64,000 bases of DNA from Candidatus Omnitrophota bacterium (GCA_021735045.1 JAIPHU010000004.1:2929-66928), one strand, 5' to 3'. Shown: positions 2,588 to 46,944, counted from the stretch's first letter. Translations and numbers: made by a program. The notes: generated by a model from the sequence alone, not told the origin.

Positions 2588-2661
2588 GCGCCCGTAGATC
2601 AATTGGATAGATCGTTTGGCTACGGACCAGAAGGTTGCAGGTTCGACTCCTGCCGGGCGCA
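2588..2661 (+). tRNA. tRNA-Arg (anticodon ACG)
   Basis: The acceptor GCGCCCG pairs with CGGGCGC. The anticodon loop is cuACGga, the T-arm is gcagg-TTCGACT-cctgc, and no CCA is encoded. Confidence 0.85.
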
Positions 2662-2663
2662 TT

Positions 2664-2756
2664 GTTCGACTCTTCCGACGCTTTGATTTTGAAAAAAATC
2701 AAAGGTCGGAATCCCGACCGAAACGAAGTGGAGCGTCGGGACTGCCGGGCGCACCA
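2664..2756 (+). repeat. duplicated tRNA-Arg 3' fragment (gttcgactc...ctgccgggcgcaCCA) interrupted by a 69-nt palindromic mini-element (2673-2741)
   Basis: Direct repeats of the tRNA T-loop and 3' acceptor sequence flank the element. The element runs TTCCGACGC...GCGTCGGGA with an internal GTCGGAATCCCGAC hairpin. Confidence 0.6.
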
Positions 2757-32173: not shown

Positions 32174-32532
32174 GGGGGTGAATGGACTCGACCTAAAAGG
32201 CGATGCGAAAAGGAGCATGCCGAGGATGTGAGTTGCCTGCGATAGTGGTACTTGCAAAAAATTAAATGCAGAAAACACATTTAATACCACTCCTGCTTAC
32301 GCTGTAAGTTAAGGAGGCTCTTCTACTTTTCTGCCTCGGAAAGTATAAGAGTTCATTTATGAGGCTCGGAGTAAGCTTTTGCTTTTCGGGTTTACTCTTA
32401 AAACTAAGGAAAGCTGCTTCCTGGTAAATCCTGCCTTTTGGAGCTATCAGGAAAAAGATAAACAAAAGGCTAAGCATGTAGAATCTTTTTGCTGAAATTT
32501 TAGGGACGCGGGTTCGATTCCCGCCACCTCCA
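32174..32532 (+). ncRNA. ssrA: tmRNA (SsrA)
   Basis: The 5' GGGGGUG pairs with 3' CACCUCC including the G3:U wobble. A GGACUCGAC D-loop analogue follows, and the 3' T-arm is GCGGG-UUCGAUU-CCCGC plus discriminator A. No CCA is encoded. Confidence 0.8.
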
Positions 32533-32576: not shown

Positions 32577-33320
32577 GGGGGACACAATACTTAATTAGTT
32601 GACACTGTATTAAGGAAAAGTATAATACAGGTATGCCAAGAATAGCACGAATTATAGCCGAAGGCTACCCACATCACATAATACAGAGAGGAAACCGCCG
32701 CCAAAAAGTATTCTTTCAAAATAGAGACTATCAAGAATATCTAAAACTTTTAAGCCAACATTCAGCCAAAAACAACCTTTCTATAGCTGCCTATTGTTTA
32801 ATGCCTAATCATGTCCATATTATAGCTATACCAAACAACAAACAAGGCCTAGCCAAGGCAATAGGAGAAACCCACAGAAATTACACCCGAATGGTAAATT
32901 TCAGAAAAAACTGGCGCGGATACCTTTGGCAAGGAAGGTTTAGTTCATATATTATGGATGAAAAACATTTGTATGCAGCGGTAAAGTATATCCTCAATAA
33001 TCCAACAAATGCAAAGGGAAAAATAACAGAAAATGTCCTAGATTACCGCTGGTCAAGCATTCATCATCATACTGGAAAAGAGAATATACCTTGGCTAAAA
33101 GATGATATATTGCAAAACATGATAGATGATTGGAGTCAATATCTAAATGAAGGCCAAGACAATAAACAGATAGAGCTTTTAAAAAAACATGAACGCACCG
33201 GCCGCCCATTAGGAGATAATAATTTTATAGAAATACTTGAGAAGAAATTAGGAATAAGCTTAAAAAAGAAAAAACCAGGGCCAAAGAAAAGAAGGGGAGA
33301 TAATTAAGTATTGTGTCCCC
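32577..33320 (+). mobile_element. IS200/RayT-like element: Y1 (HUH) transposase gene flanked by perfect 20-bp inverted repeats GGGGACACAATACTTAATTA
   Basis: IR copies at 32577-32596 and 33301-33320 (reverse complement). An internal promoter TTGACA-16-TATAAT ends 7 nt before the ATG at 32633. Confidence 0.7.
32633..33307 (+). CDS. IS200-like / REP-associated Y1 tyrosine transposase
   Basis: MPRIARIIAEGYPHHIIQRGNRRQ..., the HUH motif NHVHIIAIP and a catalytic-Tyr region LDYRWSS. Confidence 0.8.
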   Translation: MPRIARIIAEGYPHHIIQRGNRRQKVFFQNRDYQEYLKLLSQHSAKNNLSIAAYCLMPNHVHIIAIPNNKQGLAKAIGETHRNYTRMVNFRKNWRGYLWQGRFSSYIMDEKHLYAAVKYILNNPTNAKGKITENVLDYRWSSIHHHTGKENIPWLKDDILQNMIDDWSQYLNEGQDNKQIELLKKHERTGRPLGDNNFIEILEKKLGISLKKKKPGPKKRRGDN

Positions 33321-46452: not shown

Positions 46453-46567
46453 GGGCCTGTAGCTCAGCCTGGTTAGAGCAGTCCCGACGTTCGCATTTCA
46501 TGCTCAGTTGGGATTCCGACTTCTGGCCTACAGTTTAACGGCAGCCAGAACGTCGGAACTGACTCAT
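46453..46567 (+). pseudogene. partial tRNA-Met (5' half through anticodon) interrupted by a 77-nt palindromic mini-element (46482-46558)
   Basis: GGGCCTGTAGCTCAGCCTGGTTAGAGCAG, then the insert, then CTGACTCAT. This matches the intact tRNA-Met at 46848 exactly; the 3' half is missing. Confidence 0.65.
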
Positions 46568-46587
46568 TTCGGTTTTAGGTAAGTTGA

Positions 46588-46857
46588 ATGGCTTATGTTT
46601 ATATCTTGCAAGATAAGCAAAACGGAAAATTTTATATCGGCAGTACTAATAATGTTGAATCTAGATTCAAGCAACACAAAAGTAAAAAACACCATTCAAG
46701 TAAATGCTTAACAGATCCTGAAATTGTGTTTAAGCAAAAGTTTGATAGTTTAAAAATCGCAAGAAAAATAGAGCTAAGGTTAAAGAAATATAAACATAAA
46801 GATTTCATTGAAAAAATAATTAGGGACGGTATTATAAAGAAAATGCAGGGCCTGTAG
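46588..46857 (+). CDS. small GIY-YIG nuclease-domain protein (YhbQ/UPF0213-like)
   Basis: YVYILQDKQNGKFYIGSTNNVESRFKQH matches the GIY-YIG motif. The stop codon TAG lies inside the 5' end of tRNA-Met. Confidence 0.65.
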   Translation: MAYVYILQDKQNGKFYIGSTNNVESRFKQHKSKKHHSSKCLTDPEIVFKQKFDSLKIARKIELRLKKYKHKDFIEKIIRDGIIKKMQGL

Positions 46858-46922
46858 CTCAGCCTGGTTAGAGCAGCTGACTCATAATCAGTTGGTCGGA
46901 GGTTCAAATCCTCCCGGGCCCA
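46848..46922 (+). tRNA. tRNA-Met (anticodon CAU; elongator-type, or possibly tRNA-Ile2 if lysidinylated)
   Basis: The acceptor GGGCCTG pairs with CGGGCCC. The anticodon loop is cuCAUaa and the T-arm is ggagg-TTCAAAT-cctcc. There are no three G-C pairs in the anticodon stem, and no CCA is encoded. Confidence 0.85.
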
Positions 46923-46944
46923 CGTTAAAAAAAATAGGAAATTA

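Follow-up and report, generated by a model that had tools for sequence, protein, structure and literature searches.

The window analysed here, a 64,000-nucleotide (nt) stretch of DNA from Candidatus Omnitrophota bacterium, carries a tRNA-Arg(ACG) gene that is followed closely by a second copy of its own 3' end, and this second copy is split by a 69-nt insert. We describe the insert as a copy of a mobile DNA 'double-hairpin element' (DHE), built from two hairpins in tandem, each with a 7-bp foot that follows a variant of YYCCGAC/GTCGGRR. Another copy lies in the tRNA-Met locus of the same window, beside the gene of a small stand-alone GIY-YIG nuclease (Table 1).

The tRNA-Arg locus and its empty counterpart

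The functional tRNA-Arg terminates in ...GTTCGACTCCTGCCGGGCGCA (GGGCGCA) and has no encoded CCA. Beyond a short filler, the segment from the T-loop to the 3' end recurs as a direct repeat of 21 nt (GTTCGACTC+CTGCCGGGCGCA), which is interrupted by the insert, with CTGCCGGGCGCACCA directly 3' of it. Taking the insert out restores the tRNA 3' end exactly, and the restored end carries a CCA that is absent from the other tRNA-type genes of the window (tRNA-Ser, tRNA-Met and the transfer-messenger RNA, tmRNA). An earlier note on this DNA had described the repeat about 2 nt downstream of a CCA-less tRNA-Arg, the regeneration of the 3' end and the uniqueness of the CCA; the layout was confirmed by direct reading, ARAGORN and Rfam, and the other two statements are likewise correct. 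The genes around tRNA-Arg encode citrate synthase, two small open reading frames (ORFs) and a flavodoxin-like protein, and no integrase was found among them. Between the end of tRNA-Arg and the flavodoxin-like gene (2760-2795) stands a short tandem run of ATAGTC-like heptamers. The run is also found upstream of the flavodoxin-like gene in two of the related loci, L089 and L090, with a copy number that varies between relatives, and it is much longer in L090-92, as TAAGTCC repeats.

Table 1. Features of the tRNA-Arg and tRNA-Met loci, in positions of the window. MFE; minimum free energy.
Feature	Position	Strand	Basis
Functional tRNA-Arg(ACG), hybrid	2588-2661	+	ARAGORN; Rfam tRNA, 64.9 bits
92 nt extra relative to L089 (one of several equivalent registers)	2650-2741	+	single alignment gap
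Replacement 3' end of tRNA-Arg, CTGCCGGGCGCA, 12 nt, newly brought in, without CCA	2650-2661	+	L089 alignment
Filler tt	2662-2663	+	directly 3' of tRNA-Arg
9-nt copy of left target flank, GTTCGACTC	2664-2672	+	
69-nt insert (DHE), TTCCGACG...CGTCGGGA	2673-2741	+	
DHE hairpin A	2673-2711	+	MFE fold as RNA and DNA, both strands; covariation
DHE hairpin B	2712-2741	+	MFE folds; foot covariation
Original 3' end of resident tRNA-Arg, CTGCCGGGCGCA (2742-2753) and CCA (2754-2756)	2742-2756	+	
Original first 29 nt of resident tRNA-Met, with native upstream flank	46453-46481	+	L153 alignment
Second DHE copy, 77 nt, splitting tRNA-Met between GAGCAG and CTGACTCAT	46482-46558	-	pattern, covariance model
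9-nt copy of right target flank, CTGACTCAT, on inner side of DHE	46559-46567	+	
Stand-alone GIY-YIG nuclease gene, 89 aa	46588-46857	+	Pfam PF01541, E = 3.7e-13
Functional tRNA-Met, hybrid; first 29 nt (46848-46876) came with cassette	46848-46923	+	ARAGORN; L153 comparison

Syntenic loci in related Omnitrophica metagenome-assembled genomes (MAGs) were reached via homologues of the flavodoxin-like neighbour; an exact-sequence lookup gave no match. One of these loci, L089, has its gene order in common with the window (citrate synthase, two small ORFs, tRNA-Arg, flavodoxin) and represents the empty site: its tRNA-Arg is undisturbed, reads ...GCAGGTTCGACTCCTGCCGGGCGCACCAATAAAGTC..., carries an encoded CCA (GGGCGCACCAATAAAGTC) and is followed by the same downstream flank. 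Alignment of the window with L089 leaves one gap of 92 nt, exactly between GTTCGACTC and CTGCCGGGCGCACCA, and the extra sequence is made up of the 12-nt CTGCCGGGCGCA, the tt filler, the 9-nt GTTCGACTC and the 69-nt element. The CCA-bearing piece and the native downstream flank are identical to those of L089 (...CTGCCGGGCGCACCAATAAAGTC...). This undisturbed tRNA-Arg at the same site in a relative establishes, at the level of sequence comparison, that the 69-nt element is an insertion. Because L089 encodes the CCA in an undisturbed gene, the CCA-bearing piece of the window represents the gene end as it was before the insertion, and what is new is the 3' end without CCA on the functional tRNA-Arg. 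Judged by this alignment, the 12 nt that re-create the tRNA 3' end arrived with the element and an intact tRNA-Arg was kept, and the displaced original 3' end with its CCA stayed behind, split by the element. Differing rearrangements are found at the same tRNA-Arg spot in other relatives (L090-92 and L093-96), and the flank of tRNA-Arg is therefore a hot spot.

The CCA had been taken to suggest a fragment derived from a mature tRNA or a foreign attachment (att) site, a proposal that falls with the encoded CCA of the undisturbed gene in L089. An origin as complementary DNA of a mature tRNA was rejected on the same ground, and also because the equivalent 3' fragment in another locus, L004, has no CCA. 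The CCA fragment of the window is thus the old gene end and does not point to reverse transcription.

Structure of the double-hairpin element

In hairpin A, the foot TTCCGAC (2673-2679) pairs with GTCGGAA (2705-2711), a bulged G stands at 2680 and the variable top is CTTTGATTTT-GAAA-AAAATCAAAG (2681-2704). In hairpin B, the foot TCCCGAC (2712-2718) pairs with GTCGGGA (2735-2741), with a bulged C at 2734, and the top, CGAAACGAAGTGGAG (2719-2733), is a recurrent GA-rich motif with a central C-GAA-G turn that, judged by eye, is also present in L051, L052, L075, L085, L042 and L021. This arrangement modifies the first description of the insert. The palindrome described as perfect is a 10-bp stem with a 4-nt loop, and the proposed second hairpin, GTCGGAATCCCGAC, is better read as the adjoining feet of the two hairpins. 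The supposed 9-bp terminal inverted repeats, examined as in the classical tests for miniature inverted-repeat transposable elements (MITEs), match at 8 of 9 positions (TTCCGACGC vs TCCCGACGC) and are better explained as hairpin feet.

The pairing is supported by comparison of the copies. In an alignment of 28 copies, compensatory changes occur at all 12 pairs of the two variable helices, including 7/7 pairs of the top helix of hairpin A, and 90% of cells are paired, against 76% in shuffles and 32-50% when the partners are slid. The feet covary as well, S1 with S2 and S3 with S4 forming Watson-Crick pairs at 7/7 positions in each of seven sequence subfamilies, namely TTCCGAC:GTCGGAA, TCCCGAC:GTCGGGA, CTCCGAC:GTCGGAG, CCCCGAC:GTCGGGG, TCCCGAT:ATCGGGA, TTCCGTC:GACGGAA and TCCCGCC:GGCGGGA. 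The outer pairing (S1:S4) mostly contains a wobble or mismatch. The smallest copy, in L080, is 42 nt long and consists of just the two hairpins. The fold of the insert has z = -6 both as RNA and as DNA. As DNA, its two strands fold alike (-21.0 and -21.1 kcal/mol) and the covariance model matches the element on both strands; the DHE is therefore nearly two-fold symmetric, which fits a role at the DNA level.

Other folds and RNA classes were considered and set aside. A cloverleaf or four-way junction, with an outer stem TTCCGACG/CGTCGGGA and GTCGG/CCGAC pairing, can be drawn for the canonical copies; position 8 and the base it would pair with change together (G:C to A:T in L006 and L009). The divergent copies L080, L083 and L076 keep only the two-hairpin pairing, which makes the cloverleaf an alternative conformer at most. 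A by-eye comparison with hammerhead, twister, hatchet and bulge-helix-bulge intron designs gave no fit to a ribozyme or known RNA. A search of 2400-2900 against Rfam at E <= 10, group I introns of tRNA genes included, matched the tRNA alone and nothing in the insert, and no conserved unpaired core is seen in the 28-copy alignment.

Copies and hosts

Two matches to the pattern TTCCGACG-N-CGTCGGGA are present in the window, against none in 100 shuffles, which is well beyond chance. With the covariance model they score 64 and 61 bits; the model finds no further copies within the 64 kb and extra copies in many other loci. A three-block pattern yielded 13 copies in 11 genome loci, and a degenerate pattern about 25 further true copies in metagenomes; the latter pattern also drew unrelated tandem GTCGGGATCCCGAC arrays and chance matches, which were left out. 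Hosts include Omnitrophota, Planctomycetia (Planctomycetes), Patescibacteria and one 'Gammaproteobacteria' MAG. Among the carriers of the family are the complete genomes CP066687.1 (Giovannonibacteria) and OZ246405.1. A viral collection searched with the element pattern gave one unconvincing match. The GTCGGGATCCCGAC arrays (L013, L031, L032, L046, L064, L069 and L073) consist of palindromic units of about 27 nt with TTTGTAA-like spacers, a different type of repeat that has the CCGAC/GTCGG motif in common with the DHE. Neither the window nor about 60 loci showed a parent insertion sequence with the ends of the DHE.

A GIY-YIG cassette in the tRNA-Met gene

The second copy of the window, which had been missed when the Arg copy was first described, together with its link to a nuclease gene, splits a 5' fragment of tRNA-Met. 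The native upstream flank leads, in the window as in L004, into this 29-nt fragment, and the nuclease gene that follows overlaps the first 10 nt of the functional tRNA-Met with its 3' end. In the related locus L153, which has the same neighbours as the window (thioredoxin and a CT398-like gene, 80% identical), the native upstream flank leads directly into an intact tRNA-Met, without ORF or element. L153 is thus empty, and relative to it the Met locus of the window has gained 395 nt (46482-46876), which hold the element, the 9-nt flank copy, a spacer, the ORF and the 29 nt that form the new 5' end of the tRNA. On this comparison the Met insertion is the mirror image of the Arg case. The otherwise empty tRNA-Met locus of L153 (1102-1235) has a 3' fragment of its own, CAAATCCTCCCGGGCCCA, about 125 nt downstream of the gene, preceded by a CTTCGAC-TGC-GTCGAAG hairpin; a different event has therefore hit the T-loop side.

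The Met insertion belongs to a recurrent cassette of about 400 bp, arranged as the original 5' part of the tRNA, a DHE and 5-11 nt of target, then a GIY-YIG gene of about 88 aa, then the intact tRNA. Such cassettes have overwritten portions of tRNA genes in Omnitrophota, Patescibacteria and Planctomycetes. A phmmer search against the ORFs of the loci then in the set found relatives of the nuclease in L004, L016, L025 (two in tandem), L044, L053 and L059, in each case between an element-split 5' fragment and the intact tRNA and on the strand of the tRNA. The loci fetched by protein homology alone agree: 7/7 distinct ones have the DHE-split 5' fragment immediately before the ORF and the intact tRNA immediately after it. 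Their hosts are tRNA-Met (L075 and L085), tRNA-Val(cac) in Giovannonibacteria (L076), tRNA-Val(tac) (L079), tRNA-Arg(gcg) in Saccharibacteria (L080), tRNA-Ala (L083) and tRNA-Thr (L087). The ORF runs into the 5' end of the tRNA in four of the seven (L075, L076, L079 and L085), and in L076 and L079 its stop codon is the tRNA's own T8-A9-G10. The catalytic residues Y5, Y16, G18, R26, H30 and E62 are invariant in 14 homologues.

The nuclease family comprises 1,831 clusters at 50% identity (E <= 1e-10), nearly all of 85-130 aa and annotated only as 'GIY-YIG nuclease family protein'. The closest solved relatives, all of them weak matches, are the UPF0213 proteins 1zg2 and 1ywl and the I-TevI catalytic domain. 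Distant viral GIY-YIG relatives had a tRNA nearby in 0/56 viral loci. Of 50 family representatives in which the called ORF extends upstream of the domain, 15 contain peptides that translate the DHE core (VGIPT, SESRP, RDSD and others); such peptides are found within the GIY-YIG domain itself in 0/129.

Several further observations concern the cassette. The best sigma-70-like match of the region (TTGAAA-16-TATTAT, 46808-46835) lies inside the 3' end of the nuclease ORF, 13 nt before tRNA-Met, and the cassette may thus supply a promoter for the rebuilt tRNA. Two GIY-YIG domains occur in one ORF in P0161 and P0218, and two tandem cassettes stand in L025 (280-1030), which points to local tandem amplification of the unit. 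The contigs L083 and L084 do not differ across the GIY-YIG cassette and tRNA-Ala(ggc), but have nothing in common from the CCA of the tRNA onwards. A gene for a large serine recombinase follows in L084 (1504-2667), suggesting that a conventional integrative element uses this tRNA too.

Insertion into tRNA and tmRNA sequence

With the element deleted, the flanks match a tRNA in 24 of 41 copies and the tmRNA in one more (about 60% together). Among 410 random 50-mers from the same loci, 10 per copy, the best of 10 reached the tRNA-match score in 6/41 sets; the best scores listed for those sets (43-50) are consistent with these 50-mers overlapping intact tRNA genes. Removal of the DHE leaves contiguous tRNA sequence across the junction in most copies. 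The sites lie in the D-stem, the D-loop, both strands of the anticodon stem, the T-loop and the T-stem, and the element occurs in either orientation relative to the host gene. Insertion positions among them are 12|13, 10|11, 15|16, 27|28 and the 3' strand of the anticodon stem. The split tRNA- or tmRNA-derived sequence is dispensable in most copies and adjoins the intact gene, and no target duplication is seen; the DHE is always flanked on each side by at least 5-12 nt of target. Two layouts recur. Downstream of a tRNA, the intact gene is followed by filler, 7-12 nt of left flank, the element and the remainder to the 3' end. Upstream, the 5' part, the element and 5-11 nt of right flank precede the intact tRNA at some distance. 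Both are present in L004, L016 and L079.

Insertion polymorphism was found at five sites by comparison of empty with filled states. For the tmRNA, the window is empty and a relative, L002, is filled cleanly, without duplication or filler: compared with window 32174-32532, the tmRNA gene of L002 (1454-1890) contains a 75-nt DHE in the reverse orientation, some 12 nt beyond the stop codon of the tag. L002 also encodes a CCA that the window tmRNA does not have. L087 and L088 form a clean filled/empty pair in the T-loop of tRNA-Thr, with a sister hairpin family (CCCGCC type), and the downstream side of tRNA-Met gives another empty/filled pair between the window and L004. Near-identical DHEs occur at the same tRNA position within a genome (L004, L016 and L010) and in two different tRNAs that have TAGCT|CAGTTG in common (L007 and L008). 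In L079, the inner 9 nt beside the downstream DHE are the variant of the upstream fragment, GATTAGCT, and not that of the intact tRNA, GAATAGCT, which shows that the flank variant was carried over with the element.

The two sites of the window have G-W-C-W-S|CTGC in common and many sites lie at short palindromes (CAG|CTG, AGCT|CAG). A common target motif was rejected, as the tmRNA, T-loop and other sites do not fit it, and no guide-like complementarity between the hairpin tops and the target flanks was seen in a comparison by eye. In L075 (2430-2720), a decayed second tRNA-Val copy downstream of the intact tRNA-Val has been hit three times by insertions of the hairpin type: one lies in the D-loop, one follows TTGGTTAG and one lies in the T-loop.

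Discussion

The results point, with somewhat better than even probability in our judgement, to a mobile DNA element that is tied to tRNA-invading GIY-YIG cassettes, the tRNA-Arg copy being a member without the ORF and the nuclease having a putative role. We propose a series of linked steps. The stand-alone GIY-YIG nuclease would break tRNA genes or cut extruded hairpins, and the break would be repaired by copying the element, with or without the ORF, from a DHE-bearing copy. Conserved tRNA sequence would serve as the homology, and short flanks would therefore be co-converted. Selection would remove the events that leave no intact tRNA; with survival only where one intact tRNA is present, every DHE would therefore be found in a partial duplicate accompanied by a 'replacement part'. 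The tRNA-Arg copy may have been mobilised in trans or may be the remnant of a cassette.

Several points weigh against this interpretation. The 89-aa protein is a catalytic domain only, with no DNA-binding domain, and sequence-specific homing is thus not obviously within its reach. There is no GIY-YIG gene at the Arg locus and just one in the whole window; about 40% of DHE copies have no recognisable tRNA context or nearby nuclease gene, and the sites have no target consensus. The family was largely fetched with a pattern that fixes the 7-mers, which biases its apparent conservation, a bias from which the seven protein-fetched loci are free. The intact tRNA beside each cassette retains the presumed target, leaving self-immunity without explanation, and the origin of the filler (2 to about 190 nt), like that of the short flanks on the inner side, is not accounted for. 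The whole case is built on comparative sequence, and cleavage, excision and transfer are putative.

Of the alternatives, the likeliest, though in our view still unlikely, is a non-autonomous hairpin repeat of the MITE, repetitive extragenic palindromic (REP) or palindrome-associated transposable element (PATE) kind, moved by an enzyme encoded elsewhere such as a Y1/HUH transposase, with the GIY-YIG genes as separate selfish genes in the same tRNA neighbourhoods. Solo DHEs stand in tmRNA and tRNA-Arg, where no nuclease gene is close by, some 40% of copies lie outside tRNA surroundings, and the absence of target duplication fits single-strand 'peel and paste' transposition. Genes resembling the REP-associated tyrosine transposase (RAYT) are also at hand, in the window (32633-33307) and in L009, about 750 nt from a DHE. 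However, the window RAYT is bordered by unrelated 20-bp inverted repeats of its own, and a phmmer search with it against the ORFs of L001-L074 gave a sole match in L009. The DHE abuts the GIY-YIG ORF in 14/14 cassettes, including the seven fetched blind by protein homology, and its ends coincide with the hairpin feet, unlike the ends of IS200/IS605 elements. The suggestion of a MITE-like element targeting tRNA sequence, made in the earlier note, survives in part: the element is inserted, repeated and tRNA-preferring, but a classical MITE would have duplicated its target site, and no duplicated bases stand at the edges of the DHE, the flanks joining exactly in the empty/filled comparisons of tRNA-Arg and tmRNA. 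The same note had allowed for a fixed structural feature with no further copies and with identical sequence in related genomes; the second copy in the window, those in many other genomes and the empty site of L089 are the opposite of this.

It is less probable again, and in our view improbable, that the DHE is not itself mobile and that hairpin DNA was repeatedly captured or templated into double-strand breaks made in tRNA genes by the nuclease or by replication, with the duplications and the filler as by-products of end-joining. Such capture would fit the one illegitimate junction with filler in each arrangement (tt in the window; 6, 13, 18 and 44 nt elsewhere) and the absence of target duplication. 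It is at odds with the clean tmRNA insertion, which has neither duplication nor filler, with the near-identical copies at equivalent sites in different tRNAs, and with an architecture conserved across phyla together with compensatory changes that maintain the hairpins, from which it follows that the element is under selection. A structured RNA with a function of its own, transcribed along with the tRNA and acting as a small RNA, processing signal or ribozyme, is very improbable; a structured small RNA had also been raised in the earlier note. The strong fold (z about -6) with its compensatory changes, a hairpin top like a GNRA or tandem-GA RNA motif and the position in a tRNA trailer or nuclease gene leader would suit it; against it stand both orientations relative to host tRNA, tmRNA and nuclease gene, the equal folding of the strands with every foot pair Watson-Crick on both, the lack of a conserved unpaired core (28 copies) and of an Rfam match at E <= 10, and the varying presence of the DHE between close relatives. 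The third idea of that note, an att-site scar, is close to refuted. Integration into tRNA genes is classically recognised by a direct repeat that extends from the T-loop to the 3' end (PMC9897764), and the repeat would here represent the attL/attR pair of an integrase-type genomic island, the hairpin being incidental. However, the filled and empty states differ by just 92 nt, there is no integrase among the neighbouring genes of tRNA-Arg, and the same layout recurs with 5' fragments and at D-loop and anticodon-stem sites.

Taken as a nuclease-linked mobile element, the system combines known kinds, a selfish nuclease cassette and a hairpin repeat, and there is a fair chance that it forms a distinct class. 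More tentatively, and with the odds somewhat against it, the DHE and its domain-only GIY-YIG nuclease could be a previously undescribed class of bacterial selfish DNA, characterised by host-dependence, hairpin capping, structure-specific cutting and solo movement. A cassette of about 400 bp would overwrite part of an essential tRNA gene with its own copy, the host would come to depend on the tRNA part of the cassette, and the displaced gene piece would be capped by hairpin DNA, which would be the substrate of a structure-specific nuclease and able to move alone. No description of a bacterial DHE or of a GIY-YIG/hairpin/tRNA cassette was found in the literature, the coverage of which was incomplete. 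If true, transposition would here proceed by nuclease and repair, unlike the DDE, HUH, tyrosine/serine recombinase and reverse-transcriptase routes, and the system would be the bacterial equivalent of the pairs of DHE and GIY-YIG ORF in mitochondria. The smallest autonomous mobile units in these streamlined bacteria would then be nuclease-only cassettes that live in tRNA genes by replacing part of them. The elements explain stray tRNA fragments and oversized tmRNA calls in MAGs, and can mislead tRNA annotation and mimic the att sites of islands. The double hairpin is also a candidate substrate for the poorly understood stand-alone (UPF0213-like) GIY-YIG proteins, and offers a link from bacteria to the unexplained double-hairpin elements of fungal mitochondria.

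Comparison with known systems

The DHE resembles REP sequences and REPINs with their RAYTs, MITEs and the Rickettsia palindromic elements in being short, structured and multi-copy and in being able to land in RNA genes. It differs from them in having no target-site duplication, a strong preference for tRNA and two tandem hairpins rather than a single hairpin or an inverted pair. The window has a unit of REP type as well. Directly after the tmRNA gene lies a RAYT-like gene of the IS200/Y1 transposase family (unit 32577-33320; NF047646, below the cut-off), flanked by its own 20-bp inverted repeats, GGGGACACAATACTTAATTA / TAATTAAGTATTGTGTCCCC, and not by a DHE. It looks like a separate mobile unit unrelated to the DHE, and a RAYT/REP link to the DHE was rejected on account of these repeats and of the sole homologue in L009.

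Partial tRNA duplications are normally the att sites of integrases, whose islands carry a part of the tRNA, with the result that the gene stays intact and a displaced fragment remains (PMC9897764). The invading DNA described here likewise carries a tRNA part and keeps the gene intact. In contrast to integrase islands, there is no integrase, the inserts measure 92-400 nt and not kilobases, both 5' and 3' parts are replaced, and the displaced fragment is split by a hairpin element.

The nuclease of the Met locus shares with free-standing GIY-YIG homing endonucleases, and with the catalytic domain of I-TevI, the GIY-YIG fold region and its conserved Tyr, Tyr, Arg, His and Glu, and like those endonucleases it is encoded by a small selfish ORF, here beside tRNA genes, whose presence varies (L153 is empty). 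The carry-over of the flank in L079 resembles co-conversion. Free-standing GIY-YIG homing endonucleases are found in phages, as the Seg proteins of T4, of which SegB acts in a tRNA gene cluster; they have DNA-binding domains and are not known to overwrite their target. The present protein, by contrast, has about 88 aa and no DNA-binding domain, its cleavage is putative, and its cassette is hairpin-capped and overwrites part of the target instead of standing beside it or in an intron.

The closest likeness in design of the element itself is found in fungal mitochondria. In the part of PMC10085805 that cites Paquin and Lang, the DHEs of Allomyces, other chytrids and Schizosaccharomyces are described as two adjacent hairpins thought to be mobile, lying in intergenic regions and inside structural RNA genes and conserved across species. 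The element of the window is likewise two adjacent hairpins that make up the whole element, as indicated by the MFE fold and the foot covariation. In Allomyces mitochondrial DNA there is also a mobile ORF of the GIY-YIG type, which brings with it a copy of the atp6 end as a replacement. The likeness is one of design only: the element of the window is bacterial and chromosomal, given the tmRNA of the window and its match to an Omnitrophica MAG, and its family, unlike the fungal elements, has a preference for tRNA genes and a physical link to the gene of a stand-alone GIY-YIG nuclease.

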